Part shown: piece by piece, positions 7,548 to 33,316 of the stretch | How positions within the stretch are numbered: the stretch's first letter is position 1 | Layout of the letters: every line of letters starts with the position of its first letter | Notes under the pieces: model-generated | Told to the model about the DNA's origin: nothing | The model's input: only the letters and a program-made list of their open reading frames with translations | Database searches by the model: none | Program-made: the position numbers and the translations under genes | DNA from: a virus | Taxonomy: Duplodnaviria > Caudoviricetes | Strand: one strand, 5' to 3' | Length of the DNA: 64,000 bases | Virus record (IMG/VR): IMGVR_UViG_3300036820_000017 | Location: 1,491-65,490 of that record

Positions 7548-8266
7548 CCGCCGCCGACCGCGACCAGCTTGTCGTCGACCACCGGTATCTCGCCGAAACG
7601 CTCGCGTGGCGCTACGTCCAGCGGGTCCGCGGCGGAATCGACGTCGACGACCTGATCTCCGACGGATACCACGGCCTGTCACGCGCCGCCCGCACCTACG
7701 ACCCGTCGCTCGGAGGCTTCCAGACGTTCGCGTGGCCCTGCATCAAAGGCGCAATCCTCGATGGTGTCCGCCGCCGCGACCACGCCAGCCGCGGCCTGCG
7801 AAGCGCGGACCTACGGATGCAGCGCGCGCGCTACCGGTTCGCGTCGCGTGAGCACCGATTCCCGACCGACCGCGAGCTCGCCGACGAACTCGGGTGGACA
7901 GCCACGCAGGTTCACAAGTGGCGCACCCGACTACTCGCCGCCGACCCACTGTCGATCCACGCGCCGGCACCCAGCGAGGATCCGGACGGCATCCCGATCG
8001 AGGACGGCGACGCGATCCGCGACCCGTCCGCCGACACCGAAGCCGACGCGCTCGCAGCGATCGCTGCCGGGGAGGCCAGCGAACTCGCGCGGCTCGTGCA
8101 ACTACTTCCCGGCCGCCAGCAGCAGGTGCTGCGCCTGTACTTCTGGGGTGAGATGACGCTCAGCGAGATCGGCGACCTGCTCGGCGTGCATGAGTCGCGG
8201 GTCTGTCAGTTGAAGACTCTCGCGTTGAGCCGCCTGCGGGTCCTGATCGAGCCGCTGGCGGCGTGA
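7544..8266 (+). CDS. FliA/WhiG (sigma-28) family RNA polymerase sigma factor
   Basis: DDLISDG, YDPSLG-FQTFA-IKGAILD, region 3 PTDRELADELG, region 4 TLSEIGDLLGVHESRVCQL; start is CTG 7544 (CTGA overlap) or ATG 7493. Confidence 0.9.
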   Translation: MTAADRDQLVVDHRYLAETLAWRYVQRVRGGIDVDDLISDGYHGLSRAARTYDPSLGGFQTFAWPCIKGAILDGVRRRDHASRGLRSADLRMQRARYRFASREHRFPTDRELADELGWTATQVHKWRTRLLAADPLSIHAPAPSEDPDGIPIEDGDAIRDPSADTEADALAAIAAGEASELARLVQLLPGRQQQVLRLYFWGEMTLSEIGDLLGVHESRVCQLKTLALSRLRVLIEPLAA

Positions 8267-8276
8267 AGGACTAGCA

Positions 8277-8969
8277 GTGGCCGTCTTTGACCCCGACAAG
8301 CACTGCGGTGCTCAGCGACCCAACCAGCCCGTCGGGACGCTCTGCACCCGCCCGAAAGGGTGGGGGACGCCGCATCCCGGTGTCGGGCACTGCAAGCGGC
8401 ACGGCGGATCGACTGCGGCGCAGTCCAAGGCGGCCGAGGTGGAGATCGCGCGGCGCGAGTGTGACCGGCTCGGCATCCCCGTCGAGATCGACCCCGGCGA
8501 AGCGCTGATGCAGGAGTTGTGGGAGACGGCCGGCAATGTGGCGTTCTACCGCGCGCTCGTGCAGCAACTCCCCACGCATCCCGAGCCTGACGTGTTCGTC
8601 ACCGGCGGCGCCGACGATGCTGGCGACTACACGCTCGCGCACTGGGAGCGAGGCGCGCCGGGCGTGTACGGCCGCATGTACCACGAGAGCGGACTGCCGA
8701 CCGGCGAAGCTAGGCCGCACGTGCTGGTCACGCTGTACAACGCTGAGCGCAAGCATCTGACCGACGTCGCGACCGCTGCGCTGCGCGCTGGCGTGGAGGA
8801 ACGCCGCGTGCGGATGGCTGAGGCTGACGCAGCGCGGATCTTCGGCGCGCAGGTCGCCGCGCTGGCAGCGATCGGCATGGGGGACCGCCTTGATGACTTC
8901 CGCCGAGCTTTCGCCGACGCCCTCCGCCGCAGAGAGCCCCCTGCTCTCGGCGCTGCTGGCGCAGGCTGA
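8277..8969 (+). CDS. terS: terminase small subunit
   Basis: CGA...C...HPG.G.CKRHGGST motif; directly upstream of terL. Confidence 0.75.
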   Translation: MAVFDPDKHCGAQRPNQPVGTLCTRPKGWGTPHPGVGHCKRHGGSTAAQSKAAEVEIARRECDRLGIPVEIDPGEALMQELWETAGNVAFYRALVQQLPTHPEPDVFVTGGADDAGDYTLAHWERGAPGVYGRMYHESGLPTGEARPHVLVTLYNAERKHLTDVATAALRAGVEERRVRMAEADAARIFGAQVAALAAIGMGDRLDDFRRAFADALRRREPPALGAAGAG

Positions 8970-9720
8970 ACCCGCGTCGCAGGAGTGGGCGTGGCTCGAG
9001 CACGCCCGTCCGGAGCAGCTTGCGCCTGCGGGCGACTGGTTTGTGTGGCTGATCATGGCCGGCCGCGGGTTCGGGAAGACCCGAACCGGCGCCGAGTGGC
9101 TCGCGCGGCAGGCGACCGTCAACGGCGGCCTGCACTGGGCGGTTGTCGCGAGGTCGACGCAGGACTGCCGCGAGGTGTGCGTCGAAGGGCCATCCGGACT
9201 GCTGAAAGCGCTCGGGTTGACGCTCGACTCGCCGGGCTATAACCGCACGACGGGTGAGATCCGGCTGCCGGGCGGCAGCGTGATCCACTCGTACAGCGCG
9301 GAGAAGCCCGATCGGATGCGCGGCCCGAACCTTGCTGGCGCGTGGTGCGACGAGATCGGCACGTGGCGGTATGTGGAGGCGTGGACCGAGGGTCTCGTGC
9401 CCGCACTGCGGATCGGTGATCCGCGCGTCGTGGTGACCACGACGCCGCGGCGGACGCCGCTGATCAAGGATCTACTCAGCCGCGATGACGGCAGCGTGAA
9501 CCTGACGCGCGGGTCGACGTTCCACAACGCGGCCAACCTCTCGGCGTCAGCGCTGGCGGAGCTGAAACGCCGGTACGAAGGCACCCGGCTGGGTCGCCAG
9601 GAGCTGTACGGCGAGATGGTCGACGATGTCGAGGGCGCGTTGTGGACCCGCGACATGCTCGAATCGCGCGCGCGGTTTGAGATCGAACTCGTCCCGGGTG
9701 CCTTCAGGATGGGGTCATAG
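8890..9720 (+). CDS. terL: terminase large subunit, N-terminal ATPase half
   Basis: Walker A AGRGFGKT, Walker B WCDE, TTTPR, GRQELYGE; start uncertain. Confidence 0.92.
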   Translation: MMTSAELSPTPSAAESPLLSALLAQAEPASQEWAWLEHARPEQLAPAGDWFVWLIMAGRGFGKTRTGAEWLARQATVNGGLHWAVVARSTQDCREVCVEGPSGLLKALGLTLDSPGYNRTTGEIRLPGGSVIHSYSAEKPDRMRGPNLAGAWCDEIGTWRYVEAWTEGLVPALRIGDPRVVVTTTPRRTPLIKDLLSRDDGSVNLTRGSTFHNAANLSASALAELKRRYEGTRLGRQELYGEMVDDVEGALWTRDMLESRARFEIELVPGAFRMGS

Positions 9721-9742
9721 GCGTATCGTCCGACCCAGGCCC

Positions 9743-9748
9743 TACAGT
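9743..9748 (+). promoter_or_regulatory. leaderless -10 element for the HNH gene
   Basis: TACAGT-6 nt-ATG. Confidence 0.5.
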
Positions 9749-9754
9749 GTGGGG

Positions 9755-10345
9755 ATGGCGCCTCCGAAGAAACTACCAACGAAGTGCCGTATCAGCTGGT
9801 GCGACCAGCAGGCCGCCATCGGACGCAAGGGCTGGTGCAGCCTCCACTACCAGAAATGGCGCAGGCACGGCGACCCCGAGCGCGTCGTCATCATCCGCCA
9901 GCACCCCGACGTCTGCACGCTCGAAGGATGCGACGAGCCCTACTACGCCCGGCACTACTGCAAGACGCACTACCGGCGCTGGAAGGCCCACGGCGACCCG
10001 CACATCGTGCTCGCGAGCCATCCCGGTGCGTCTTGGATCAGCACAGAGGGCTATCGCTTCCTGTATCGGCCCGAGCATCCGAACGCCAGCAGGAAGGGCA
10101 CCATCGCCGAACACCGGCTGGTCATGGCCGAAAAGCTCGGCCGCCCTCTGCTGCTGGGCGAAACGGTGCATCACTGCAACGGCGACAAGCTGGACAATCG
10201 GCCGGAGAACGTCGCCCTCCGCGTTGGCCGCCATGGCAAGGGCGCGGACGTGGATGCGCTCGTCGAGTGGGCCCGGGAGGTGCTTCGTCGCTATGACTCG
10301 GACGATTCACCCGTGGGACCTCGGCCGCATATGCGTGGCGGTTGA
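9755..10345 (+). CDS. HNH homing endonuclease inserted in terL
   Basis: EHRLVM...VHHCNGDKLDNRPEN; two N-terminal C..C...C..HY..W..HGDP repeats. Confidence 0.9.
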   Translation: MAPPKKLPTKCRISWCDQQAAIGRKGWCSLHYQKWRRHGDPERVVIIRQHPDVCTLEGCDEPYYARHYCKTHYRRWKAHGDPHIVLASHPGASWISTEGYRFLYRPEHPNASRKGTIAEHRLVMAEKLGRPLLLGETVHHCNGDKLDNRPENVALRVGRHGKGADVDALVEWAREVLRRYDSDDSPVGPRPHMRGG

Positions 10346-10853
10346 TCCGGCGACGACGTCCGGTGAGTCGGCGGACGACACCGGGATCATCGTCGCTGGC
10401 CTCGGCCGTGACGGCGACGGGTACGTCCTCGACGACCTCACGTGCCACCTCTCGCCGGATGGGTGGGCGAAACGCGTCAAGTTCGGCTACGACAAATGGC
10501 AGGCCGACCGTGTGATCGCGGAGGCCAACAACGGCGGCGAGCTCGTCCGCACCGTCCTGATGACCCAGGACGAGAACATGCCGCTCACGCTCGTGCATGC
10601 ATCCCGGGGGAAGCTGACCCGCGCTGAGCCGGTCGCTGCGTTGTATGAGCAGGGCCGGGTGCATCACGTCGGGATGTTCCCCGAGCTTGAGGATCAGTTG
10701 TGCGAGTGGGTGCCGGGCGATTCGGATTCGCCGGACCGGTTGGATGCGTTGGTGTGGGCGTTGACGGAGTTGATGGTGCGTCCGTCGATGTCGATGCCGG
10801 AGGACGCGTCGTTCTGGTCTGAGCCGCCCACGCCGTCGCGCTGGGCGAGCTAG
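10293..10853 (+). CDS. terL: terminase large subunit, C-terminal nuclease half
   Basis: VAVDPA, DDTGI, AEANNGG, SPDRLDALVWA; own SD GGGAGGTG before ATG 10293. Confidence 0.9.
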   Translation: MTRTIHPWDLGRICVAVDPATTSGESADDTGIIVAGLGRDGDGYVLDDLTCHLSPDGWAKRVKFGYDKWQADRVIAEANNGGELVRTVLMTQDENMPLTLVHASRGKLTRAEPVAALYEQGRVHHVGMFPELEDQLCEWVPGDSDSPDRLDALVWALTELMVRPSMSMPEDASFWSEPPTPSRWAS

Positions 10854-10854
10854 G

Positions 10855-10974
10855 CGGCTCCGGCAAGGGCCTCACCCTTGCGACCTCCGAGCCACTCGGC
10901 GCTCTTCTGCTCCCCGTCGGCCTCTTGCGCAGTCGGCCGGCGGATCACTGCGAGACGGGCTGAGCTACGGAGCC
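10855..10974 (-). ncRNA. tRNA-like RNA with expanded D-loop and collapsed anticodon loop
   Basis: GGCTCCG/CGGAGCC acceptor, TAGCTCAG, GAGC D-stem, CCGAG-TGG-CTCGG, AGGTC, GCAAGG-GTGAGGC-CCTTGC. Confidence 0.6.
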
Positions 10975-11027
10975 GACCCCGTGAAGTATCTCACCCACCA
11001 CGGCGCCACCGGCGCGAAGGAGGACAC

Positions 11028-11606
11028 ATGTTCCAACGCAAGCGCACCCCGCGCGACCCGCACACCGTCGCCGTCGAACTCCGACTGCACCACACCGGGG
11101 CGCCCAACTACCTGTCTCACCCGATGCTTCTGTTCGCGCCCGACGCTCCTGCGGCAGACCGGACGCTCGCGATGGAGTGGCTCAAGGCTTGGACTGCGGC
11201 GCAGTCCAAGCCGGACGCTCCCAAGCCCAAGACGGAGACGATCGGCCACGTCACGCTGGAGATCGAGCCGGTGCTCACCAGCACGTCGGAGCGGGCCATC
11301 CGCAAGCTCGTCCGCGACGAGATCCGCGCTGCCAAGCGCGAGACCGGCGAGTGCATCGGCGAGGCCACGCTCGAACTCAAGGCCGACACCGGCCGACTCG
11401 ACGCCGACCTTGCCGCGGCCGAGGAGAAGGTCGCCGCCTCGATCGAGCGCATGCGGAAGATGCTGCAGTCCGTCGGCGCGCCCGGCAGCGAGGACAACCC
11501 TGTCGTCGTCAGGCTCGAGCGCGACGTCCGGTACCAGCAGGTCGGCGGCAACTTCGCGTACGGCGGCATCGTCCCGGCCGGCGCAACGCCGTCCGCCAGC
11601 GACTGA
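11028..11606 (+). CDS. protein carrying tape-measure-like motifs
   Basis: SD AAGGAGG; segments similar to the N-terminus and internal motifs of the TMP at 36794. Confidence 0.8.
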   Translation: MFQRKRTPRDPHTVAVELRLHHTGAPNYLSHPMLLFAPDAPAADRTLAMEWLKAWTAAQSKPDAPKPKTETIGHVTLEIEPVLTSTSERAIRKLVRDEIRAAKRETGECIGEATLELKADTGRLDADLAAAEEKVAASIERMRKMLQSVGAPGSEDNPVVVRLERDVRYQQVGGNFAYGGIVPAGATPSASD

Positions 11607-11620
11607 GCCGGGAGGGCCCG

Positions 11621-14065
11621 TTGCCACAAGCACGCCGCAACACCAGCAGCCAAAGCAAAGGGCCCAAACCGCCGACCGAGATCGCGTCGAACGCCGGCTT
11701 CCTCGCACCCGCACCCCGCCGCCTCGCCCGCACCGGCGGCCCGATCGGCGACGCGTTCAGCGAAATCGGCACCAGCGGCCTGCGGCAATACGGCGGCTAC
11801 GTCCTCGAGGAATGGCTCAACAAGCTCCAAGGGCGCCGTGCCGCATGGGTGTGGCGCGAAATGCTGGACAACGATCCGACGGTCGGCGCGGTCATTTTCG
11901 CGATCAAATGGCTCGCCCGCGGCGTCGAATGGCGCGTCGAAGAGGGCAACCAGCCCGAGGCCGCCGAGTTCGTCGAAGAGTGCATGCATGACATGTCGCA
12001 CACGTGGGGCGACTTCGTGAGCGAGGTGCTGTCGTTCCTGCCGTACGGGTGGAGCTTCCACGAGCTGGTGTACAAGCGCCGGCAGGGCGCCGGGCCCGCG
12101 AAGCCGATGACCCCGCCGGACGAGTTCGCGGGGCAGGGCGCCGAGACCGAGGAGGACGACAGCAACCCCGCGAGCAGCGCGTACACGGACGGGAAGATCG
12201 GCTGGCGGAAAATCCCGGTCCGCGCCCAGGAAACACTGCTGCACTGGGAATTTTCAGGCTACAGCGGAATTTCAGGGATGAACCAGATTGACTATCACGG
12301 CGGGAAGCACATCATCCCGATCGAGAAAGCCGTCCTGTTCCGCACGCAGACCACCCGGAACAACCCCGAGGGCAGGTCCGTCCTCCGCAACGCGTTCACG
12401 AGCTACGACCTCCTGAAGGGCATCAAGCAGATCGAGGCGATCGGCATCGAACGCGATCTCGCGGGCATCCCGATGGTCAAGGCGCCCGACGGCGTCGACA
12501 TTTTCAGTCCGACCCAGAGCGCGCTGTTCAGCAAGATCAAGCAGATGGTCACGGGGATCCGCCGTGACGAGTATGAGGGGCTGATCTTCCCGTTCGGCTG
12601 GGAGTTCGAGCTCGTGTCCAGCGGCGGGTCGCGGCAGATTGATACGGACGCGATCATCCGCCGGTACCGGCAGGACATCGCCACGAGCATGCTCGCGGAC
12701 TTCGTGCTGATCGGCCAGGATGCTGTCGGCAGCTTCGCGATGGTCGACGTGAAATCGGACCTGTTTGGTGTCGCGATCGACGGGGTGCTGGACCTGGTGT
12801 GCGAGGTGATGAACCGGTACGCGATCCCGCGGCTGCTCGCGATGAACGGGATGGACGTGACCGAGCCGCCGGAGATCCATCACGGGTCAGCCGGCCGGAT
12901 TGATCTGGAGAAGGTCGGCGGGTTCCTGTTCCAGCTGGCCGGCAGTGGCGCGCCGATCCCGTGGTCGGTGCCGTTGCTGGAGTCGCTGTTTAGCGAGGCG
13001 GGGTTGCCGACGAACTTTGAGGAGGCGACCGAGGATCCGATCCCGAAGGCGCCGAAGCCGGAGCCTGATCCGAACGATCCCGCGACACAGCCGGTCGGGC
13101 CGCCGAAGCTGACGCCGGGTGAGGAGCCGTTCGCGCGTGAGGCGCATCTCGGCACGGCAGCGCCACCGCCGCCCGCGCCCGCGGCTGCCAAGCCGCCCGC
13201 AGCCGACCCGAAAGCGAAGGCCAAGCCGCCGGTGCAGAAGGCCGACACCGACAACGACCACGTGTGGGACACCAGTCTCGGCCGCGCGATCAACGTCGCC
13301 CCGAAACTCCAAGAGCGTCACGCCATCCTGTCCGCCCAACTCGAGCAGGAGATCACCGCCGCGCTCGGACAACTCGGCGAGCAAGCCGCATCCAGCTTCC
13401 GCGGGATCGCGCACAAGTCAGCGGGCGGCAGCATGCTGCACCGCCTCGTCGGCCGTGTCGTCCGCAGCCTGAACCTGCCCTTGTGGATCAACCTGCATCT
13501 CAAGCCGATCCTTGCCAACCACGCCGGCCGGGTTGCCGCTGACACGCTGCGGACCCTCCAGGCCGAGGTCGGGTTGGAAATGCAGGTGGGTGAGCAGGAC
13601 GCGCAGAAGCTCGCCGACACAGCCGGGACCGGGCTCGGGATGCGGGACATCGAGCCGCAGGTCCGCCAGTCGATCATGCAAGCGATCCGCGACGGCCTGA
13701 ACGCGGGCGAGAACCCCGTCAAGACGGCTGACCGGATTCGCGCGCAGGTGCCGGCTGGCCGGTTCGTGAACGCCGGCGCGAAATACCGGTCACGTTTGAT
13801 CGCGCGCGACGCGACCGCGAACCTGCAACGCACGGCCGCGATCGCGGCGTACCGCTCTAACGATCACATCACCGGCGTGCAATTGGTCGACGGGATCTAC
13901 GGGCCACCCCGCTCGGATGCGGCGTGCATGAGCCGCAGCGGGCAGACACTCCCGATCGACGAAGCCGACGACGCGCAGCCGAACCACCCTTTGTGCACGC
14001 TGGCGGTCAACCCGATCGTGTCGGGGTCGCTCAGCAGCGACCGCGAGCCCGCGCTCGCCGCCTAA
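11621..14065 (+). CDS. portal protein fused to a head morphogenesis (F-like) domain
   Basis: TTG after GGAGG; EIGTSGL, GWSFHELVYK, NNPEGRSVLR, EAIGIERDLAGIP; Pro-rich linker; C-terminal SRLIAR...C...HPLC. Confidence 0.88.
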   Translation: MPQARRNTSSQSKGPKPPTEIASNAGFLAPAPRRLARTGGPIGDAFSEIGTSGLRQYGGYVLEEWLNKLQGRRAAWVWREMLDNDPTVGAVIFAIKWLARGVEWRVEEGNQPEAAEFVEECMHDMSHTWGDFVSEVLSFLPYGWSFHELVYKRRQGAGPAKPMTPPDEFAGQGAETEEDDSNPASSAYTDGKIGWRKIPVRAQETLLHWEFSGYSGISGMNQIDYHGGKHIIPIEKAVLFRTQTTRNNPEGRSVLRNAFTSYDLLKGIKQIEAIGIERDLAGIPMVKAPDGVDIFSPTQSALFSKIKQMVTGIRRDEYEGLIFPFGWEFELVSSGGSRQIDTDAIIRRYRQDIATSMLADFVLIGQDAVGSFAMVDVKSDLFGVAIDGVLDLVCEVMNRYAIPRLLAMNGMDVTEPPEIHHGSAGRIDLEKVGGFLFQLAGSGAPIPWSVPLLESLFSEAGLPTNFEEATEDPIPKAPKPEPDPNDPATQPVGPPKLTPGEEPFAREAHLGTAAPPPPAPAAAKPPAADPKAKAKPPVQKADTDNDHVWDTSLGRAINVAPKLQERHAILSAQLEQEITAALGQLGEQAASSFRGIAHKSAGGSMLHRLVGRVVRSLNLPLWINLHLKPILANHAGRVAADTLRTLQAEVGLEMQVGEQDAQKLADTAGTGLGMRDIEPQVRQSIMQAIRDGLNAGENPVKTADRIRAQVPAGRFVNAGAKYRSRLIARDATANLQRTAAIAAYRSNDHITGVQLVDGIYGPPRSDAACMSRSGQTLPIDEADDAQPNHPLCTLAVNPIVSGSLSSDREPALAA

Positions 14066-14103
14066 CCCAGCTTCGACAACCAGCCCTGACCGGGAGGTCA
14101 CCC

Positions 14104-14343
14104 ATGGCAATCCGCGCCGACCAGGAAGGCTCCGTCCTCCTGCACGACCAGAACGACCTCGTCGTCCGCAAGGACGGCACCAAGCTGTCAACCAGCGCGC
14201 ACGGCGTCACCACCGGGTTTACCGCCGCGACCGGCACCACCGTCGTGTCCGGTTCGACGTTCACCGGGAACATCGGCTCGACCGCGTACACGCTCAGCGA
14301 CATTGTTGCGGCGCTGAAGACCCTCGGCGCGCTCGCACCCTGA
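14104..14343 (+). CDS. head-fibre-like small protein
   Basis: SD GGGAGGT; C-terminal IVAALKTLGAL. Confidence 0.6.
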   Translation: MAIRADQEGSVLLHDQNDLVVRKDGTKLSTSAHGVTTGFTAATGTTVVSGSTFTGNIGSTAYTLSDIVAALKTLGALAP

Positions 14344-14349
14344 CCGCGG

Positions 14350-14937
14350 ATGGCTGAGATCACGATCAGCGTGCCGGTCGGGACGCTCAGCGGCGACCCG
14401 CAACGCGGCGGCGAGGTCGCTGCCGCCCCCGGCTTCGGGATCAACACCAGCGGCAAGGCGTACTTCAGTCCGAGCGGCGCGACCGCTGGGCAGGCCGCGT
14501 GGCTGCGCATGTCCCCCGAGGGGCATTTAAAGCTCGTGCAGAGCACCACCACCTCGATGGACTACAGCCTCGTGGAGGGTGACGTCCGCCCGCTCGAGCT
14601 GCCGGACTCGGTGACCGTGGAGATCCGCGAGAAGGCGGGGAACAGTCCCGCGCCGCCGGCCTATCGGATGGTTGCGGTTCTCCCGTGCGATGGACGGCCC
14701 GTCGATGTCGCTGACTTGCAGACGGTGGCGTTGCGTCACGGCCGCCCACTCGAACTGCCCGATGCGGTGTTGCCTCCGGTGCGGGTGAAGGTCGGCGGGA
14801 CTGTCGCCCGCGTGCCCGCGGCGGTCATCTCACCGCAGATCCATGAAGGACGGCCGCTGGAGCTCCCGGGCGCGGTCACCGGCCCGGTCCGGTCAGGCCG
14901 CCCGAGCGAAACGAACCAGATCGGCATCGGATCATGA
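14350..14937 (+). CDS. putative structural protein with RPLELP repeats
   Basis: VRPLELPDSV, GRPVDVADL, GRPLELPDAV, GRPLELPGAV. Confidence 0.6.
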   Translation: MAEITISVPVGTLSGDPQRGGEVAAAPGFGINTSGKAYFSPSGATAGQAAWLRMSPEGHLKLVQSTTTSMDYSLVEGDVRPLELPDSVTVEIREKAGNSPAPPAYRMVAVLPCDGRPVDVADLQTVALRHGRPLELPDAVLPPVRVKVGGTVARVPAAVISPQIHEGRPLELPGAVTGPVRSGRPSETNQIGIGS

Positions 14938-15824
14938 CCCAGATCGGCATCGTCACCACCGGCCAAGGCGAAACGTCCGGGCAGTCACCCGTCGCCGACG
15001 GCGCCGGCGGATTCACGTGGGCGACCCCCAGCGGTGGTGGAGGCTCGGCCGTCACGACCCGCAACGCGTCAGGCGCGACCGCGATCACCGTCGCATCATC
15101 CGGCGGCGCGTTCATCGACACGCTCACCGGCAACACCACCTACAGCGCCCCGACCGGCGCCGTAGGTGGCACCGAATGCTCGATCGACATGCAGATCACC
15201 CAGGACGGCGTCGGTGGCCGCACCCTGACCTGGACAGGCATCACGTGGCTCTCCGGGATCGCTCCAACGATGCCAACGGCGCCCGGGTCGATCCTGTACG
15301 TCTCGCTGTTCTCGCTCAACGGCGGCAGCGCCTGGTATGGAACCTACGGGCCGTTCACGCCCGCGCCGTGGCCTAACTCGACGTTCGGCTTCCCGGCGCT
15401 CGGCTCGTCAAACACGGCGTTCACCGCGAACGAGATCGCCGTCGCGGAGGTCGCGATCCCCGGTGCCGCGACCCTGACCGGCGTCTGCGCGCAGAACGGC
15501 GCGACCGGCACCGGCACCATCATCCCAGTGCTGTACAGCGCGACGGGAACGCTACTGGCTAGCGCCGCGTCAGGTATCGCGCAGGTCGGAGGCAGCGGCC
15601 TGCAGCTGTTCGCATTCTCAGCGCCCTATGCGGCCGCGGCGGGCGCGTACTTCATCGGCCTGATGTTCCTCAGCGCCAGCACCAAGGTGTACTGCTGCTA
15701 CGCGTGCAGCATCTCCGGGCAGGTCGCCGGTGGCGGAACCACCCCGCCGTCGACGATCACCCCGCCGACGCTGCCGGGCGGCAACCCGACCGGCTATCTC
15801 GTCCCGGTCATGTCGACGTACTGA
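14934..15824 (+). CDS. fibre/appendage-like virion protein
   Basis: G/T/A-rich; ITQDGVGGRTLTW motif; N-terminus shared with 17301. Confidence 0.7.
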   Translation: MTQIGIVTTGQGETSGQSPVADGAGGFTWATPSGGGGSAVTTRNASGATAITVASSGGAFIDTLTGNTTYSAPTGAVGGTECSIDMQITQDGVGGRTLTWTGITWLSGIAPTMPTAPGSILYVSLFSLNGGSAWYGTYGPFTPAPWPNSTFGFPALGSSNTAFTANEIAVAEVAIPGAATLTGVCAQNGATGTGTIIPVLYSATGTLLASAASGIAQVGGSGLQLFAFSAPYAAAAGAYFIGLMFLSASTKVYCCYACSISGQVAGGGTTPPSTITPPTLPGGNPTGYLVPVMSTY

Positions 15825-17263
15825 TGCGCGGAGCTCTACGCCGCAGCGGCACCTACCCCGCGTCGAGCCGATGGACAACCCAGAGCCCCTGGGATCTCCT
15901 GCCGAACGGGCATAAAGCCAAGGGCGTCACCATCTTTGACCGCAACTGGTACGGCGTCGCACCCGAAACGTATGTGCCGACGCATCTCGCGGACTTCTGG
16001 AACACCTGGGAGTGGTCCGCCGCGGGCGCGTTCGGCGCGGCCGGGAACTGGATCAAACCCCAGATCGACCTGGCGATCAGCATCGGCTGCAACTTCATCC
16101 GATTCTGCGGGACCGTCATCGGCCGCGACGCCAACGCCGGCTACACCAGCGGGTCGGGCGGCGGGATCATCCCCGACGCCCAGTATTTCCCGCAGTGGGC
16201 GCAGGTGCTGCAGTACTGCCGGTCGAACGGGATCTACTGCCAGCCGACGTTCGAGATCGATACCAGCCCATCCACATCGGGTCGCGCGTCCTATTCGACC
16301 ACGAACGCGTGGCGGGTCCCGGAATGGAAGCGGCTGCTGCAACTGTTCCAGGCGTATCTCGACGTGGTGATGTGCGTCGACCTGCTGAACGAAGGGTATG
16401 GCTGGTGCTCGTCGACGAGCGATACGAGCTACGGCAATCCGGGCGGGAACACGTACAACTCGGTGATCATCTACGACGCGTTGAAGCCGACCGCGGGCGT
16501 GATCCCGTTGACGGTCTCGACGTATTTCAAGGCGACCCCGAACCTGTCGAATCCGTGGGTGTCCAATAGCGGCGGGCAGCGACTCCCGACCAGCGGCGTG
16601 TTCGACTACTACGACACGCACCTGTACTACGACCCCGTCAGCCCAGCCGAATATGACGGCCTGTTTCAGTCGGGGCTGCCGGTGCTGATGGGCGAGTTTG
16701 GGCAGAACATGTCGGTCGGGACACCAGACCGGCAGCTGCGGTACAACAGCGCGCTCGCGATGGCTGAGCGGTCATCGAACGTTCCACCGCCCGCGTATCT
16801 CACGACGGCCGCGACGGGCGGGACGGTTCTGGCCGGCACCTATCAGGTCGAGATCACCTATGTCACCGCCGCGGGCGAGACGGTCGGATCGTTCGCGCAG
16901 AGCATCGTCACGACCGGGAGCACGTCGACGATTGTGATCCAGTCCCCGCCGGCGGTGTCGGGCGCGACGGGCTGGTACGCGTATGTGACGCAGGCGGCCG
17001 GTTCGACGTTCACGCGGCAGCAGACGGCTGGCAGCCCAACGGCGATCAGCACGAACCTGACGGTGACCGCTCCACCGTCATCGTCGGGCGCGAACCCTCC
17101 CGGATCGGACACGAGCGGACTCGCGGCGCGGCACATGGCCGGCGCGAGCGCGTGGTGCATGGTCGACCACGACACGCAGACCAACGACGAGTGGGGGATC
17201 GCTGACGCCAGCGGAAACCTGCGGTCAGACGTGACCAGCATTTTCGAGAGCCTCCCGTCATGA
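15824..17263 (+). CDS. clan GH-A (GH5-like) glycoside hydrolase with inserted beta-sandwich
   Basis: DLLNEG acid/base, DTHLY, VLMGEFG nucleophile, GASAW. Confidence 0.75.
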   Translation: MRGALRRSGTYPASSRWTTQSPWDLLPNGHKAKGVTIFDRNWYGVAPETYVPTHLADFWNTWEWSAAGAFGAAGNWIKPQIDLAISIGCNFIRFCGTVIGRDANAGYTSGSGGGIIPDAQYFPQWAQVLQYCRSNGIYCQPTFEIDTSPSTSGRASYSTTNAWRVPEWKRLLQLFQAYLDVVMCVDLLNEGYGWCSSTSDTSYGNPGGNTYNSVIIYDALKPTAGVIPLTVSTYFKATPNLSNPWVSNSGGQRLPTSGVFDYYDTHLYYDPVSPAEYDGLFQSGLPVLMGEFGQNMSVGTPDRQLRYNSALAMAERSSNVPPPAYLTTAATGGTVLAGTYQVEITYVTAAGETVGSFAQSIVTTGSTSTIVIQSPPAVSGATGWYAYVTQAAGSTFTRQQTAGSPTAISTNLTVTAPPSSSGANPPGSDTSGLAARHMAGASAWCMVDHDTQTNDEWGIADASGNLRSDVTSIFESLPS

Positions 17264-22269: not shown

Positions 22270-22650
22270 ATGACCCCACAACGGTTTCAGAACGGCGGCG
22301 ATCCTCTCGGTCGCGCGCTCGAGCAGGCGAAGGCTCAGCAGCGGGCGCAGGAGCAGATGCAGCAGGTGATGCTGAACGCGCTGAACGCGCCGCACACCCT
22401 TGAGGTGACGCAGATCAGCTTGGCGGTTCTCGCGCCGGGCGAGCCGGGGCAGGCGCGCGTGTTGATGGTCGCGACCCCGGACGGGAAGCGCCGCGACATC
22501 GTGCTGAGCCCGCAGGCGCTCGCCGCGATCGCTCAGGCCGCCAGCGAGCAGGCCGCGGTCCAGGCGCAGGAGCAGACGGCCGCGGTCGATGAGGCTGTCG
22601 CCGCTGCCGTCCCGGATGAGTCTCAGGCCGACGCGGGGCTCGCCGCGTGA
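22270..22650 (+). CDS. hypothetical Gln/Ala-rich protein
   Basis: ATG 22270; GTGA overlap with next gene. Confidence 0.7.
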   Translation: MTPQRFQNGGDPLGRALEQAKAQQRAQEQMQQVMLNALNAPHTLEVTQISLAVLAPGEPGQARVLMVATPDGKRRDIVLSPQALAAIAQAASEQAAVQAQEQTAAVDEAVAAAVPDESQADAGLAA

Positions 22651-23690
22651 AAGTTCGCGTCCACCCCGGCGACCAGCGGGGAGTGGGCTTTTGCCGCATG
22701 ACGTGGCCGGCGCAGGCCGCGCAACGCGAAGGCATCGACATTGAGATCGCCGACGGCGTGCCGATCCTCCGGCGCCCCAGCCCGCGAGGCGACCTCATCA
22801 AAGCCGCGCCACTCGACGCGGACGTGCTCGTGTTCCAGCGGATCAGCGACCCCGAGGTTCTCGCGATCATCCCCGACCTTCAGGCTCGCGGGCACGCGAT
22901 CGTGGTCGACGTCGACGACGACCTGCATAGCGTCCCGAAGACGAACGCCGCCTATGGGTTTGAGCGGCCGCGGAACGTGCTGAAGGCGTGCGCGCTCGCG
23001 GATCTCGTGACCGTCACCACCCCGGCATTGGCTCGCCGGTATGCGCCGCATGGCCGCGTCGCGATCCTCCCGAACTGCGTCCCCGAAGCGGTCCTGTACC
23101 TGCCCAGGGATAGCGACGGGCGGACGGTCGGATGGGGCGGCTGGGCTGGCTCGCATCCCGGCGACCTGGAGATCACGCGCGGTGGTGTCGCCGACGCGGT
23201 CGACCGCGCCGACGCGAGGTTTCATGTCGTCGGTCCTGCTGACTATGTCGCGGAGCGTCTCGGGCTGAGCTGCGAGCCGACCGCGACCGGCCCGTTGATG
23301 AACGTCGCTGGCTACGAGTTCGAGCGGGCGCTCGGCGCGCTGGATGTCGGGATCGTCCCGTTGGCGGACACGACGTTCAACCAGGCGAAAAGCACGCTGA
23401 AGGGCTTGCAGTACGCCGCGCGGGGTGTCGCGTTCGTCGCATCGCCGGTCGCGGAGTATCAGCGGCTCGCCGGCGACGGGATCGGCGTGACAGCGGGATG
23501 GCGGTCGCGTAGCTGGCGCGGCCGGATCCTGGAGTTGCTGACCGACGATCACCGCCGCAACGAGCTCGCCGCCCAAGCGAAGGCGCTCGTCGCTGAGCGT
23601 CACACCTACGAGGGGAACGCATGGCGATGGGCTGAGGCGTGGTCAGAGGCGCTTGCTCGTCGCCGGTCGCTCGGGAGGGCCGCAGCGTGA
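22647..23690 (+). CDS. GT-B fold glycosyltransferase
   Basis: VVDVDDDL, LVTVTTPALA, DVGIVPL...FN.AKS.LK.LQY. Confidence 0.85.
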   Translation: MKVRVHPGDQRGVGFCRMTWPAQAAQREGIDIEIADGVPILRRPSPRGDLIKAAPLDADVLVFQRISDPEVLAIIPDLQARGHAIVVDVDDDLHSVPKTNAAYGFERPRNVLKACALADLVTVTTPALARRYAPHGRVAILPNCVPEAVLYLPRDSDGRTVGWGGWAGSHPGDLEITRGGVADAVDRADARFHVVGPADYVAERLGLSCEPTATGPLMNVAGYEFERALGALDVGIVPLADTTFNQAKSTLKGLQYAARGVAFVASPVAEYQRLAGDGIGVTAGWRSRSWRGRILELLTDDHRRNELAAQAKALVAERHTYEGNAWRWAEAWSEALARRRSLGRAAA

Positions 23691-24181
23691 AGATCGTCGT
23701 CCCGTACACGAAGCTGAGTGTCGAGACCGAGGAGGCGCTCGCCGGACTCAGGGTCGAGTACGTCGACGTCAGCGCCGAGCTCACCAGCTACTTCGATCTG
23801 CTCAACGAGTTGTGGCTCGCGTGCGAGGACCTGATCATCGTCGAGCAGGACATCGTGATCAACGGCGGCACGATCCCCGGGTTCATTCGCTGCAACAGCC
23901 TGTGGTGCGCCGCCCCGTACCCGTACCTGGGTGCTGGCGTATACGCCGGTCTGGGGTGCGTGCGGTTCCGCAAGGCGCTGATGGAAGCGCACCCCGACCT
24001 GATGGCCGATGTCGCGACCCACGACTACCCGGGTCACAGTCCGATGCACTGGTGCACGCTCGACGCCGCGATCCAACGGGAGTTGTGGGCGCGCCGCCGG
24101 CATGCGTGCTGTAACCATCGGCCCGTCGGGCATCTGCATGACTGGCCGACTCACGGCTGTGTGGAGGGCGCGCCCGCATGA
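23687..24181 (+). CDS. GT-A-like glycosyltransferase
   Basis: IIVEQDI; GLGCVRF. Confidence 0.65.
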   Translation: MKIVVPYTKLSVETEEALAGLRVEYVDVSAELTSYFDLLNELWLACEDLIIVEQDIVINGGTIPGFIRCNSLWCAAPYPYLGAGVYAGLGCVRFRKALMEAHPDLMADVATHDYPGHSPMHWCTLDAAIQRELWARRRHACCNHRPVGHLHDWPTHGCVEGAPA

Positions 24182-24257
24182 GTCGCGCTCGACCGGGTCA
24201 CCGGCACCGGTGGCAGACGTCGCGATCCCACTGCAACTCCCGCGATAGGAGCCGTCC

Positions 24258-24470
24258 ATGACCGACTGGGCAGTGATCACCACCAGCCCGTATGGCGGAC
24301 GCCCGGCCTACGCCTACTACGCGTTTGACGAGTCAGCCGACGATCAGGCCGGTAAGCCGTTCGACGAGCAGACCGCCCGGCAGCTGGCGGCCAACATCAA
24401 CCAGTTTCATCAGACGCGCGGGTGGGCGTACGCGCTGCCGCTCCAACAGACCCTCCAGCCGGGGGTGTGA
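24258..24470 (+). CDS. hypothetical protein
   Basis: SD AGGAG. Confidence 0.6.
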   Translation: MTDWAVITTSPYGGRPAYAYYAFDESADDQAGKPFDEQTARQLAANINQFHQTRGWAYALPLQQTLQPGV

Positions 24471-24664
24471 CCGTGGCGTCCAGCGAAGCTAAGCAGCTTG
24501 CCGAGGACGCGCTGAAGTGCGCGCAGGCCGCCAACGGGGCGATGAACGAGATCGACCAGGCGGCGTTGCCGAAGGGCGTCTGGGATGTCCTGTACCAGCA
24601 GAACGAGGCGATCAGCCAACTGGCGATCGGGCTGCTGTTCCTAGCGAGCGAGCGGAACGGATGA
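24467..24664 (+). CDS. hypothetical protein
   Basis: GTGA overlap. Confidence 0.55.
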   Translation: MTVASSEAKQLAEDALKCAQAANGAMNEIDQAALPKGVWDVLYQQNEAISQLAIGLLFLASERNG

Positions 24665-24903
24665 AATCGCTTCGCGGCTGCGCTCGCTGTGGCGGCGCGC
24701 ACGTCGACACGATCGAGTGGCGCCTACTCACGCGGCCGATCATCGACGGCGACGGCACGACATGGACGCACTGGTGCCCGTGCCCGACCAACGGCGAGCC
24801 GATCCTCATGCGGAAGGCCCCAACGGTCACAGGCTCGACTCCGGGCACGCCCGCGAACCCGATCATCGTAAACATGACCATTCGGCCGCCGGAGAACACA
24901 TGA
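24661..24903 (+). CDS. zinc-binding-like hypothetical protein
   Basis: CARCG...H, CPCPTNGEPIL; C-terminal GTPANPIIV. Confidence 0.6.
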   Translation: MKSLRGCARCGGAHVDTIEWRLLTRPIIDGDGTTWTHWCPCPTNGEPILMRKAPTVTGSTPGTPANPIIVNMTIRPPENT

Positions 24904-25559
24904 GCATCGCGGTTCTCACCCCGTCTCGCAGCCGCCCCGCCCAACTCGTCGAGATGGTCGAGGCGATCCACCGCACCGCGTGGGAACCAGTCGCCATCTA
25001 CGTCGGCCTCGACGACGACGACGCCGAGAACTACACGCTGCCGGTCGGCGTGACATGTCTCATCCGGCCGCGGATGCAGCTGGCACCATGGACGAACCTG
25101 CTCGCCGATCAGGCGCTCGCTGACGGCCACGAGATCCTCGCGTCGTTCGGGGATGACCACCGTCCCCGCACCTCCGGGTGGGACGCGATCGTCCAGACGA
25201 CGTTCGAGGTGATGGGCCCCGGGCTGGTGTACACCCGCGACGGCCTCCAAGACGAACGGCTACCCACCGCACCGTTCTGGTCCGCCGACATCATCCGCGC
25301 GCTCGGCTGGTACTTCCCGCCCGGCCAAAAGCACCTGTACGCCGACGACTTCTGGCTCGCGTTCGCCCGCGCGCTCGACCGCCGCCGGTACCTCCCGAAC
25401 GTCCTCATCGAGCACCTGCACCCGAGCGCCGGGAAGGCCGAGGCGGACGCGATCAACGCCGACAACGACTCGCACTACGACGCCGACCGCCAAGCATTCG
25501 AGGCGTACCTCGCCGACGGGTTCGCTGCCGATGTCGAGCGCGTCAAGGCGGCGCTCTAG
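24900..25559 (+). CDS. GT2-like glycosyltransferase
   Basis: VLTPSRSRP, GDDH, HLYADD, IEHLHP. Confidence 0.8.
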   Translation: MSIAVLTPSRSRPAQLVEMVEAIHRTAWEPVAIYVGLDDDDAENYTLPVGVTCLIRPRMQLAPWTNLLADQALADGHEILASFGDDHRPRTSGWDAIVQTTFEVMGPGLVYTRDGLQDERLPTAPFWSADIIRALGWYFPPGQKHLYADDFWLAFARALDRRRYLPNVLIEHLHPSAGKAEADAINADNDSHYDADRQAFEAYLADGFAADVERVKAAL

Positions 25560-26131
25560 TGGAGGTCCAGTTCTTCGAGCCCGGCACCGTCCCGGAGTGG
25601 ACGACCCCGGAGTGGTATGCACAGCGGGAACGCGCGCCGCACCTCGAGCAGGACGGCCACCGCGACCGACTGTTCCTCGCCGCCGACTTCGTGAACAGCT
25701 TCGAGATGGACCCCGCCGCGTACACGGTCTCTGACATGGGCTGCGGAGATGGCGGCCTGCTGTCGCTGCTGACCGAGTGCTTCTACTGCTGGGGGTATGA
25801 CCTTCAGCCGTCCAACGTGGAGGGCGCCCGAGAGCGCGGCGTCGATGTCCGTCTCGGGAACGCGCTCACCGACGATGTGGAGTGGGGCGACGTCGCGGTC
25901 TGCACCGAAGTGCTCGAACACCTGATCGACCCGCACGCGTTCGTCCGCAACATCCCGTCGCGCGTCCTCATCGCCTCGTCGCCAGACGGCGAAACACTCG
26001 ACCAGCGCTACGAATTCCACACCTTCGGCTGGGACATGGACGGGTATCGCGCGCTGATCGAACAGGGCGGCTACCGCGTCGTCAGACACGAGTCGATCGG
26101 CTTCCAAGTCCTGATGGGAGTACGCGAATGA
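25559..26131 (+). CDS. class I SAM-dependent methyltransferase
   Basis: DMGCGDG; CTEVLEHL.DP. Confidence 0.85.
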   Translation: MEVQFFEPGTVPEWTTPEWYAQRERAPHLEQDGHRDRLFLAADFVNSFEMDPAAYTVSDMGCGDGGLLSLLTECFYCWGYDLQPSNVEGARERGVDVRLGNALTDDVEWGDVAVCTEVLEHLIDPHAFVRNIPSRVLIASSPDGETLDQRYEFHTFGWDMDGYRALIEQGGYRVVRHESIGFQVLMGVRE

Positions 26132-27030
26132 ACGTGCTGATCACCGGCCACCGCGGGTTCATCGGCCGGCACCTCCACGCCGCGCTCGCCGCCCAGCATC
26201 ATCACGTCGTCGGCCTTGACCTCGTTGACGGCCGCGACTGCCGCGACGAGTTCCGGTACGGCCGCACCCCATACGACCTCGTGTTCCACTGCGCCGCGAC
26301 CGTCGGCGGCCGCGAAGGGATCGACTACAACGCGGCGCTGCTCGGCGCCAGCAACCTCCAACTCGACGGCGGCCTGTTCGACTGGGCGCTGCGCACCCGC
26401 CCCAGCCGAATCGTGTACTTCAGCAGCGCAGCGTCCTACCCGGTCAGCCTGCAAAACGGCACGTACGCCAGCACCGGCTACCGGCTGCACGAGCGCGACA
26501 TCGACCTGCGCAACCGGATCGGGATGCCCGACAACACGTACGGGTGGGCGAAAGTCACCGGCGAGATCCTCGCCGAGCACGTCCGCAAAGCCGGCGTCCC
26601 GGTCACCGTCGTCCGACCGTTCTCCAGCTACGACTGGGATCAGGATCCGGCGTATCCGTGGCATCAGTTCGCACTCCGCGCGCACCGCCAGGACGATCCG
26701 TTCATCGTGTGGGGCGACGGAACACAGGTCCGCGACTTCATCCACATCGACGACATCGTCGGTGCCGTCCTCACGCTCGTCGACAAGCGTATCGACGGGC
26801 CCGTGAACCTCGGGACCGGAGTTGGAATGAGCATGGACGATCTCGCCCGACTGTTCATGGCCGCAGCTGGCTACCAAGCGCCAATCCGGCACCTGGAGGA
26901 TAAGCCGATGGGCGTTATGCATCGGGTTTGCGACAACACGCTGCTGCGCCGCTACTACCAGCCGAAATTCAGCGTCGAAGAGGGCATCCGCCGGTCGCTC
27001 GCAGCGTTGGCTCAGCCGCCTGTCGTGTAG
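26128..27030 (+). CDS. NAD-dependent nucleotide-sugar epimerase/dehydratase
   Basis: ITGHRGFIG, SSAA, YGWAK, GDGTQVRDFIHIDD. Confidence 0.92.
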   Translation: MNVLITGHRGFIGRHLHAALAAQHHHVVGLDLVDGRDCRDEFRYGRTPYDLVFHCAATVGGREGIDYNAALLGASNLQLDGGLFDWALRTRPSRIVYFSSAASYPVSLQNGTYASTGYRLHERDIDLRNRIGMPDNTYGWAKVTGEILAEHVRKAGVPVTVVRPFSSYDWDQDPAYPWHQFALRAHRQDDPFIVWGDGTQVRDFIHIDDIVGAVLTLVDKRIDGPVNLGTGVGMSMDDLARLFMAAAGYQAPIRHLEDKPMGVMHRVCDNTLLRRYYQPKFSVEEGIRRSLAALAQPPVV

Positions 27031-30087: not shown

Positions 30088-30519
30088 ATGAGCCAGCTTC
30101 CCGCTGTTTCACTAGTCCCCGCACACGGCCGGTGGGCGTTTCCTGCCGGTGCCACGAGCCTCGCGCAGTTCCAGTTCGTGGAGATCAACTCGTCCGGCGA
30201 ACTGATCACGCCTGCCTCTGCGGGGATCTTCGCTGTCGTGCTCGACGACGCGCCGCAGCTTTCCGGCGCGACGCTCGGAACCGGCGGCGAGTACTCCGGC
30301 GGCTACACCGTCGGCGTGCCCTACGGCGTCGTGTTCCAAGGCGTCCAGAAGGTCATCACGGGCGCGAACCTCACGCCCGGCACCGCGGTCAAGACCGACA
30401 CGAGCGGCCACGCGGTCGCTGCCAGCTCGGCCGGTGACGTGATCCTCGGCTGGACGCTGTTCGCGTCCAACTCCGGCGACCTCGCGCCGATCCTGCTGGA
30501 CCGTTCGCTGCACAACTAG
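30088..30519 (+). CDS. capsid cement/decoration protein
   Basis: between scaffold and MCP; G/A-rich beta protein. Confidence 0.7.
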   Translation: MSQLPAVSLVPAHGRWAFPAGATSLAQFQFVEINSSGELITPASAGIFAVVLDDAPQLSGATLGTGGEYSGGYTVGVPYGVVFQGVQKVITGANLTPGTAVKTDTSGHAVAASSAGDVILGWTLFASNSGDLAPILLDRSLHN

Positions 30520-30663: not shown

Positions 30664-31698
30664 ACGCCTCAGCCCAGTGCTAACCAGCTACACGTCGACA
30701 CGTATCTGACGGATGTCGCCGTTGCGTGGTCGCAGTCGGAGATGAGCTTCATCGCCGACAAGGTCTTCCCGACCGTGCCGGTGCTCAAAGAATCGGACCT
30801 GGTCGCGATCTACGACCGGGAGTTTTTCTTCCGATTCGGGACTATGCAGGCCCGCGGTCTCGGCGCACGGCCCGCCGCGACCGGGTACGAGATCAAGCAG
30901 GCCCGCTACCAGATCACCGAGTGGGCCGAGGAGCACCTGATCGACGATCGGGTGCGCCAGAACGCCGACCAGCCGCTTGACCCGGATCTCGCCGGGATGC
31001 GGCTGCTGACCACCCACGCGCTGATTCACCGCGACACGCTCTGGACCCAGCAGTTCTTCAACACCGGGATCTGGGGCACCGACTGGACTGGCGTCGCATC
31101 CGGCCCGACCGGCAACCAGTTCACGCAGTGGGACCAGTCGAACTCCGACCCGATCCAGTTCGTCCGCAACCGCATCAACGATGTCGGCGGGAAGACCGGC
31201 TACCGGCCGAACGTTGGGGTCATGGGCCCCACCGCGTTTGAGGCCGCCCTAAATCACCCGGATATTGTTGACAGGCTGAAATACACCCAGGGTCCCGCCG
31301 GATATCCCGGCTCGGGAGCGGACGCTGCGAAGAACGTGCTCGCGGCACTGTTCGGCCTGGATCGCATCGAGGTGCCTTACTCGGTGTCGAACACGGCACA
31401 CGAGGGGCAGGCGGAGAGCACGGCGTACATCGTCACCCCGACGTCGATGCTGCTCGCCTATGCGGCTGCGGCACCGTCGATCACCGAGCCGTCCGCTGGC
31501 TACACGTTCGCGTATACCGGCCTGTTGCCGGGTGTGACGAACGCGTTCGGTGGCGTGATCGAGCGTGGCCGCGAGGAGCTGGCGCACAGCGATGTGCTGC
31601 AGATCCGTGCCGCGTACGACATGTTGCAGGTCGCGACCGAGCTGGGTGAGTTCTTCCAGACGGTCGTGTCGTCGTCCTATGGCGAGGCGACGTTCTAG
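30664..31698 (+). CDS. major capsid protein (apparent ACG start)
   Basis: PQPS...HVD.YLT.VAVA...FIADKVFP.VPV.K.S N-terminus; YRPN; PSAGYTF; first in-frame ATG (30742) lies inside the conserved region. Confidence 0.88.
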   Translation, partial: TPQPSANQLHVDTYLTDVAVAWSQSEMSFIADKVFPTVPVLKESDLVAIYDREFFFRFGTMQARGLGARPAATGYEIKQARYQITEWAEEHLIDDRVRQNADQPLDPDLAGMRLLTTHALIHRDTLWTQQFFNTGIWGTDWTGVASGPTGNQFTQWDQSNSDPIQFVRNRINDVGGKTGYRPNVGVMGPTAFEAALNHPDIVDRLKYTQGPAGYPGSGADAAKNVLAALFGLDRIEVPYSVSNTAHEGQAESTAYIVTPTSMLLAYAAAAPSITEPSAGYTFAYTGLLPGVTNAFGGVIERGREELAHSDVLQIRAAYDMLQVATELGEFFQTVVSSSYGEATF

Positions 31699-31786: not shown

Positions 31787-32284
31787 GTGAGCGCACTGAC
31801 TTGGTCATATGCCGGTGATCCGTCCGCGAGCGATGTTGCCGCGGTCCGGTTCGAGATCCAGGACACCAACGTGGCCGCCCAACTCCTCCAGGACGGCGAG
31901 ATCAGCTACGCGATCGTGCAGGAGACCGGGCTGACGCCGTCTGACGACAGCGTCACGCAGGGCACCGCGCAGCTGTACTCCAGCGCCGCGAGGTGCTGCG
32001 AGGTGCTGGCCCGCAACTTCGCGATGCAGGCCGACACCGAGGTCGGGCAGATGAAGGTCACGTACAGCCGCACAGCGCAGAACTACGCGGCGCAGGCGAC
32101 CGCGCTGCGCACCCGAGCGGCTGGCTACAACGCGCCGTACTCGGGCGGCCAGTCGATCGGCGAGAAGGAAGGCTGGCGGCAGGACACCGATCTGCCCCGC
32201 CCGAAGTTCACGCGCGATCAGTTCGATTCACCTTATGTCGTCCGTGGGGACGACAACGGCGCGTTGCCGCCGATGCCGAACTGA
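31787..32284 (+). CDS. head-tail connector/adaptor
   Basis: WSYAGDP...AVRFEIQDT...LLQDGEI; position. Confidence 0.75.
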   Translation: MSALTWSYAGDPSASDVAAVRFEIQDTNVAAQLLQDGEISYAIVQETGLTPSDDSVTQGTAQLYSSAARCCEVLARNFAMQADTEVGQMKVTYSRTAQNYAAQATALRTRAAGYNAPYSGGQSIGEKEGWRQDTDLPRPKFTRDQFDSPYVVRGDDNGALPPMPN

Positions 32285-32436
32285 CGAATGATGCGACGGC
32301 TCGCGGTCGCGCTCTTCGCGGTGCAGTTCACGTCGCTCGCGTGGCCGCTGCTTGGCATCGCCCGGCTCTGGCATGACCGGCACACGCTCCCTGCGCAACG
32401 CCACGCCGTGCACGCCGCGCTGACCCAGGAGACAAC

Positions 32437-32826: not shown

Positions 32827-32828
32827 CG

Positions 32829-33305: not shown

Positions 33306-33316
33306 GAGGACCGCCC

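Follow-up and report, generated by a model that had tools for sequence, protein, structure and literature searches.

A small phage protein encoded beside the portal gene carries the sequence element found at tape measure protein starts

P0001, a 192-residue protein encoded between the large terminase and portal genes of a soil phage, contains an internal element that is, by sequence comparison, homologous to the N-terminal start of tape measure proteins (TMPs). What appears to be new here is the occurrence of this known TMP docking element in a separate small protein. By analogy with phage necks of known structure, we consider it possible, with a probability of roughly 0.35, that P0001 docks via the TMP-like element at the head-proximal end of the tail.

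The P0001 gene

The window (the whole stretch of DNA analysed here, 64,000 nucleotides) comprises bases 1491–65490 of a linear metagenomic virus record 65.5 kb in length, and its GC content is 65–70% throughout. A preliminary description of this DNA had placed a 192-aa gene with a strong Shine-Dalgarno sequence between terminase and portal. We confirmed the ORF, the GAAGGAGG sequence 5' of it, and its position between the C-terminal terminase piece, which ends at 10853, and the portal gene at 11621 (Table 1). The distance of ~25 kb to the gene for the 2130-aa TMP (36794–43186) was likewise confirmed. Codon-position GC of the P0001 ORF is 0.70/0.50/0.91 (GC2 0.495, GC3 0.911), like that of the portal (0.66/0.48/0.88) and TMP (0.65/0.52/0.89) genes, and GC3 is 0.84–0.97 across all four sub-regions of P0001. 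The in-frame extension 5' of the ATG (10878–11027; 0.72/0.72/0.64) is without coding signal, and the ORFs that overlap P0001 in other frames are usual high-GC artefacts. P0001 is a real gene. Its stop codon lies 15 nt from the portal TTG, and a region scan of 10600–11800 found no promoter-like or terminator-like site. The coding signal, the tight spacing and the lack of such sites indicate that this gene is probably co-transcribed with portal, and that its product is probably a late-operon protein.

Table 1. Positions of P0001, its parts and the genes discussed in the text, numbered from the first base of the window.
Feature	Position	Strand	Basis or remark
Large terminase N-terminal domain (Terminase_6N)	8890–9720		E 9.5e-23
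HNH endonuclease gene	9626–10345		Other frame
Large terminase nuclease domain (Terminase_6C)	from about 10338; ORF ends 10853		E 1.5e-15
Shine-Dalgarno-like GAAGGAGG	11016–11023	+	4 nt 5' of P0001 ATG; read from sequence
P0001 gene, 192 aa	11028–11606 (stop included)	+	ORF translation
P0001 residues 1–69, basic N-terminal region	11028–11234	+	Net +4, pI 10; one predicted helix, 42–59
P0001 residues 70–105, degenerate first strand-helix unit (TETIGHVTLEIE + helix)	11235–11342	+	6/12 identities with second unit
P0001 residues 106–149, clear copy of TMP N-terminal strand-helix element	11343–11474	+	BLASTP, HMM
P0001 residues 150–170, PGSEDNPVVV strand motif	11475–11537	+	Common to P0003, P0004, P0005 and TMP residues 102–111
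P0001 residues 172–185, VGGNFAYGGIVPAG	11541–11582	+	Resembles first half of TMP C-terminal GG motif; not significant
Mu-type portal gene	11621–14065	+	Pfam Portal_Mu E 1.1e-25; TTG start after GGGAGGG
Glycosyltransferase and sugar-epimerase genes	22.6–27 kb		
Scaffold	30088–30519		
Major capsid protein	30742–31698		phrog_1005, E 3.5e-63
Neck genes, the last being the tail terminator	31787–34182		
Candidate tail completion protein	32829–33305	+	Position and HK97 gp10-like motif; two genes 5' of terminator
Tail terminator	33730–34182	+	phrog_123, E 6.6e-10
Likely tube protein	35123–35734		Position alone
Two chaperone-sized genes	35904–36772		Position alone
TMP gene, 2130 aa	36794–43186	+	SLT lysozyme-like domain
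TMP residues 1–125, N-terminal module homologous to small proteins	36794–37168	+	Alignments, AF2

P0001 matches the start of the tape measure protein

The preliminary description had counted by hand 18 identities in 37 residues between P0001 and the TMP N-terminus, a count that was exact on recount. BLASTP aligned P0001 residues 106–149 with TMP residues 2–45 (19 of 44 identical, 43%), and this pairwise match stays significant after composition adjustment (E 6e-7). A six-frame search of the 65.5-kb record recovered the same P0001/TMP pair with E 1.1e-5. The paired stretches of DNA are identical at 77 of 132 positions (0.58), as compared to an in-frame background of 0.33 ± 0.045 with a maximum of 0.485 in 2000 draws. 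Only 21 of the 44 third codon positions agree, indicating that the split between the P0001 and TMP copies is old.

Profile comparison also found P0001. When an HMM of 30 other TMP starts was run against the 904 six-frame ORFs of the window, it matched TMP (E 1.1e-9) and P0001 (E 1.1e-8) and no others, the next-best ORF having an E of about 1; the score is partly circular, because these same sequences had served to derive the pattern with which the starts were gathered. The placement of the pattern matches at TMP starts, described below, is not circular. P0001 retains all five columns that are invariant in the 30 aligned TMP starts (E, G, A, E, D). Its copy of the element begins at residue 106 and is therefore internal, whereas in each of the 37 TMP-like matches the distance from start codon to element is 1–6 residues. 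P0001 is otherwise without TMP hallmarks, being 192 aa long and encoded in the terminase/portal slot, 25 kb from the tail module. None of the TMP profiles PF10145, PF06791, PF20155, PF09718 and TIGR01760 matched P0001, and searches of Pfam, PHROG and NCBIfam gave no match at E up to 1.

The element is a signature of TMP starts across phages

We ran a degenerate DNA pattern for the conserved columns of the element on viral contigs, of which 39 matched. For 37 of these, the match lies in frame, 1–6 residues after the start codon of a TMP-like ORF; the other two (L014 and L022) have the motif inside the same 216-codon open frame. Thirty of the 37 ORFs are 475–1141 codons long (stop to stop), and seven run off the end of the locus. 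Among 25 distinct complete ORFs, TMP Pfam families were represented by PF10145 (five), PF06791 (five), PF20155 (three) and PF09718 (one), and in 17 a regular expression found, close to the C-terminus, the glycine motif with an E-x-G-P-E-like stretch after it. The genes 3' of one pattern-matched ORF (L007, 8010–10361) are, judged by eye, what we take to be typical of GTA-like tails.

The first ~25 residues of many TMPs that otherwise diverge strongly (loci L011–L049; mean column identity 15%) keep a near-fixed signature, in which E, G, A, E and D do not vary among 30 non-redundant aligned sequences. As judged from these alignments, the element is a generic TMP start signature, and the fixity of this signature implies a conserved partner. 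The siphophage and GTA-like TMPs (PF10145, PF06791, PF20155, PF09718) are 468–1138 aa long, are encoded in tail modules and have the signature first. P0001 has none of these properties, but resembles the starts of these proteins in keeping the five invariant columns and in its HMM match (E 1.1e-8). A TMP start of ~40 residues is thus recognisable across very different phages, and the signature could help to place TMP start codons in annotation.

Three metagenomic proteins share the element with P0001

An exhaustive phmmer search of 1.84 billion representatives at E up to 0.001 returned four proteins: P0001 itself, P0003 (241 aa), P0004 (223 aa) and P0005 (118 aa), the last three from assemblies of public metagenomic runs. 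P0001 residues 106–168 are common to P0003, P0004 and P0005, and consist of the element followed by P-G-S/T-x-x-N/D-P-V-V. Over 63 aa, P0001 is 47.6% identical to P0003 (E 3e-13) and 49.2% identical to P0004 (E 2e-14); it is 31% identical to P0005 over 112 aligned positions (E 5e-10). By alignment (A2, A4), these four proteins make up a small family in which the element and the P-G-S/T-x-x-N/D-P-V-V strand occur in a protein of <250 aa. The N-terminal regions of P0003, P0004 and P0005 are unrelated to that of P0001, of which residues 1–69 found no relative and align to none of these proteins, and the accessory helix motif comes in a different order. P0003 and P0004 diverge in the C-terminal half. 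By contrast with P0001, which carries the element internally, P0005 begins with the element as TMPs do, and ends in a glycine-rich tail.

P0005 aligns over its whole length to TMP residues 4–125 (E 3e-7), and G, P, V and V are invariant in the five-sequence alignment of the small proteins and TMP (A2), indicating that the first ~125 residues of TMP are one module. On this sequence evidence, the small proteins are free-standing versions of the TMP N-terminal module, and NPVV belongs to that module. P0003, which comes from unrelated DNA, is 54.5% identical to TMP residues 2–45 (E 1e-9), as compared to 43% for the phage's own P0001. The likeness of P0001 to its own TMP, as put forward in the preliminary description, is therefore unspecific: the element is generic, with 37 of 39 pattern matches at TMP starts, and P0003 is closer to this TMP than P0001 is.

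The statement that no described family resembles P0001 was borne out, with no match to Pfam, PHROG or NCBIfam families and no relative among PDB sequences. Among PADLOC defence families the best match of P0001 was LeoA (E 0.011, 12.8 bits), which is not a family match. A word-indexed search of 5.8 billion proteins with P0001 found P0001 alone, a protein search with TMP region 1–130 found only itself, and alignment A2 found no relative among longer proteins. At the DNA level, tblastn of P0001, TMP 1–130 and a middle part of TMP against 50,697 phage records gave no match; viral contigs searched with P0001, P0005, P0003 and the capsid protein yielded none; a pattern for the NPVV region matched seven loci in metagenome contigs, of which none was a relative; and 185,579 species genomes searched with alignment A4 and TMP 1–130 yielded none. 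P0001 is present in the ESM Atlas, where its own model has a pLDDT of 0.44, structure rows reach a TM of 0.37, and there is no usable feature match. We found no description of a stand-alone TMP-start protein in the literature.

Secondary motifs of P0001

P0001 had been described as a condensed copy of three motifs of its own TMP. Of the three, only the first element is significant. The second, GSEDNPVVV, matches GSRQNPVVM of TMP at six of nine positions, which was equalled by 136 of 300 shuffles against TMP residues 46–2130 and by 15 of 300 against residues 46–130. Its credibility comes solely from the invariant P-V-V of the five-sequence alignment and from P0005, which aligns across both motifs (TMP 4–125). 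GSEDNPVVV thus stands as part of the TMP N-terminal module and not as a second borrowed motif. The third, FAYGGIVP, is at chance level: its match at five of eight positions was equalled by 299 of 300 shuffles, and BLASTP of the VGGNFAYGGIVPAG region gave E 0.27. With an HMM of the TMP C-terminal GG motif, the P0001 site ranked first of the 904 window ORFs, yet with E 0.2, which is not significant. The second partial copy of the element that had been noted at IGHVTLEI is marginal. This copy, TETIGHVTLEIE, agrees with the second unit at 6 of 12 positions, a score equalled by 12 of 5000 shuffles, but its HMM E is 0.11.

Structural models and known necks

AF2 modelled the TMP start as extended over residues 1–17 and helical over residues 18–44 (pLDDT 81–94 over residues 1–50). 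TMP residues 46–67 contain a second, weaker strand-helix unit right after the first (model helix 56–67). For the P0001 monomer, AF2 predicted strand 75–79, helix 88–106, strand 113–117 and helix 122–148, with a low mean pLDDT of 47.8. Co-folding of two copies of TMP 1–130 with P0001 66–192 scored 0.01 as against a mark of 0.32, in one job without controls.

In the neck of Staphylococcus phage 80alpha, only residues 1–37 of the TMP gp56 could be modelled; they make a strand and a helix that dock on gp51, the tail completion protein (PMC11661146). There, each of three TMP copies adds one strand, making a five-stranded sheet with the hairpin of the monomeric completion protein, and the three TMP helices join two completion-protein helices in a five-membered superhelix just below the DNA end (PMC11661146). 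In this one solved structure, the TMP start grips the completion protein at the DNA end. In phage 812, a density of trimeric form that is assigned to the TMP N-termini is in direct contact with the end of the DNA; in T5, density assigned to the TMP N-terminus extends, unresolved, to the top of the terminator.

The start of the 80alpha TMP matches the TMP-start HMM with E 2e-6, as three weak tandem stretches within its N-terminal 120 residues (L057, 1729–5193). Sequence comparisons suggest that tandem strand-helix units are common at TMP starts. Like P0001, gp56 has a short strand followed by a long helix, and tandem weak copies, which also occur in the TMP of the phage studied here. By contrast, the element of 80alpha is the free N-terminus of a TMP of 1154 residues, whereas that of P0001 is internal to a protein of 192 aa whose gene lies beside portal. 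P0001 is linked to 80alpha by analogy and by a weak resemblance in sequence.

The tail completion proteins lambda gpZ, SPP1 gp16.1, 80alpha gp51 and HK97 gp10 are small proteins of the head-proximal tail lumen that pair strands and helices with TMP N-termini (PMC11661146). The two strands and two helices predicted for P0001 are the same inventory as the hairpin and two helices given there for gp51, but the topology differs, with strand-helix-strand-helix predicted for P0001 as against helix-hairpin-helix for gp51. P0001 is also unlike the completion proteins in that its gene is not next to the terminator gene (33730–34182) and in that no sequence, profile or PDB-sequence comparison links it to them.

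Possible docking at the head-proximal end of the tail

If P0001 docks at the tail, it would present the strand and helix of a TMP start, allowing strand addition and helix bundling in the head-proximal tail lumen. The docking partner could be the tail completion protein, or P0001 could take a place beside the TMP N-termini; it would thereby be a minor neck-lumen or tail-completion accessory protein. The strand-helix element of P0001 is acidic, as is the TMP start, and an acidic element combined with 69 basic N-terminal residues would suit a piece situated between DNA and TMP. We infer the binding mode, the partner and the presence of P0001 in the virion by analogy. P0001 may act as an adaptor, a regulator or a competitor, such that aid to assembly and competition are both possible.

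Docking is favoured by the coding signal and the spacing to portal, by the BLASTP match (E 6e-7), by the TMP-start HMM, and by the existence of relatives with the element and NPVV. It is also consistent with the AF2 models, which have a strand or extended stretch followed by a helix both in P0001, at low confidence, and at the TMP start, and with the position of the TMP N-termini at the DNA end in 80alpha and phage 812. Several observations argue against docking. Since the element is internal in P0001 and N-terminal in 37 of 37 TMP matches, a free N-terminal strand may be required, and would be missing in P0001. The P0001 gene belongs to the packaging/portal block and not to the neck or tail genes; AF2 modelled the monomer poorly (pLDDT 47.8); there are only three relatives among 1.84 billion representatives; the candidate tail completion protein is without family support; the HMM score is partly circular; and the connection with 80alpha is one of analogy and faint sequence similarity.

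Alternative explanations

A lesser possibility is that P0001 is a protein of the head or packaging side, with the element serving as an oligomerisation piece or as a contact to the portal or DNA end, and with no tail partner. P0001 would in that case act in the capsid, for example on the portal-fused protein or the DNA end, and be retained there or ejected with the DNA. The location of the gene between large terminase and portal, where 15 nt separate its stop from the start of portal, would fit such a protein, as would the basic N-terminal 69 residues; and a DNA-end role is conceivable given that the DNA end is contacted by TMP N-termini in phage 812, and via the completion protein in 80alpha. 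However, apart from this small family, TMP starts are the only place where the element was found (37 of 39 matches), and no portal, scaffold or head family matches P0001. Moreover, Arthrobacter phage Laroye, whose portal is 42% identical, has an unrelated gene in the P0001 slot 5' of portal.

The roles that the preliminary description had put forward for P0001 were those of a defence decoy, an inhibitor of rival tail assembly and a co-ejected protein. It is unlikely that P0001 is a competitive mimic or decoy, the TMP-start surface of which soaks up a host sensor or superinfection-exclusion protein aimed at TMP, or poisons the tail completion of co-infecting phages. A stand-alone copy of a conserved docking element is what such a mimic would look like, and an element this generic could cross-react with the partners of other phages. 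By contrast, P0001 matches no defence family (PADLOC best E 0.011, 12.8 bits); the literature yielded no TMP decoy, mimic or anti-defense protein of this kind; a late structural operon without promoter-like or terminator-like sites in 10600–11800 fits a structural role better than early counter-defence; and a poison subunit would strike the phage's own tails too. Should P0001 nevertheless be a competitor and not a part of the virion, it would represent a new kind of phage-phage or phage-defence interference.

We consider it distinctly improbable that P0001 is an evolutionary leftover, a 5' fragment of a TMP gene that was captured, became joined to unrelated sequence and has stayed open but functionless. 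The paucity of relatives (three in 1.84 billion representatives, and none found in phage genomes, viral contigs, metagenome contigs or 185,579 species genomes) is consistent with a leftover, as are the differing C-terminal halves of P0003 and P0004. By contrast, all four sub-regions have a GC3 of about 0.91, protein identity to TMP is kept while third codon positions are saturated (21 of 44), and three independent metagenomic relatives keep the element and NPVV (P0003 and P0004 at 47–49%).

A chance or compositional resemblance of alanine- and glutamate-rich helices is largely refuted and very improbable: two of the three extra motifs are at or near chance level, and TMP is absent from the four phmmer matches at E up to 0.001, such that the TMP match alone is not significant database-wide, but BLASTP with composition adjustment gives a pairwise E of 6e-7, the TMP-start HMM picks out just two of the 904 window ORFs (next E about 1), and a DNA identity of 0.58 was not reached in any of 2000 background draws.

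A free-standing element beside portal, if read as kept by selection, would be a handle on a step that is poorly understood, the joining and later release of tail lumen, completion protein and DNA end. In its widest form, which we think has only a small chance of being correct, the docking proposal would be that phages repeatedly evolve stand-alone mini-genes of the TMP docking end as interface mimics, with P0001 and its three metagenomic relatives as one family, and that these gate or time the joining of head and tail and the release of DNA in their own phage, or jam the conserved interface of rivals.

Genome setting

The cultured phages closest by portal are Arthrobacter phages of the Laroye group, with 41–42% identity, and the capsid protein is at most 37% identical to those of Roseobacter, Pseudomonas, Rhizobium and Arthrobacter siphophages. 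Four viral contigs carry a portal that is 41% identical; the one that was read (L004) has an unrelated gene 5' of portal. Megablast of window positions 8000–16000 gave no match.

The large terminase is encoded in two pieces that do not share a frame, with the HNH endonuclease ORF between them in the third frame. No Rfam intron family, and no Rfam family at all, matched in 8800–11700. Judged from the sequence, the two-piece terminase may reflect a split gene, an intron that escaped recognition or the insertion of a homing endonuclease. The portal ORF encodes 815 aa, and the Pfam portal match stops near residue 446, leaving ~370 C-terminal residues without a family. These residues may be MuF-like, which would make the protein a fusion of portal and minor head protein.

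The product of 32829–33305, the candidate tail completion protein, has what we presume to be an HK97 gp10-like motif, and gave no family match and no PDB-sequence match. Between this gene and the terminator, 33317–33733 encodes a 138-aa helical protein with cysteine pairs (zinc-ribbon-like), and the GC3 of this gene is lower, at 0.76. The glycine motif occurs twice in TMP, around residue 1284, beside the SLT domain, and around residue 2024. Two glycosyltransferase-like genes and a nucleotide-sugar epimerase-like gene (22647–27030) lie inside the structural block, between portal and the scaffold and capsid genes, and may glycosylate virion proteins.
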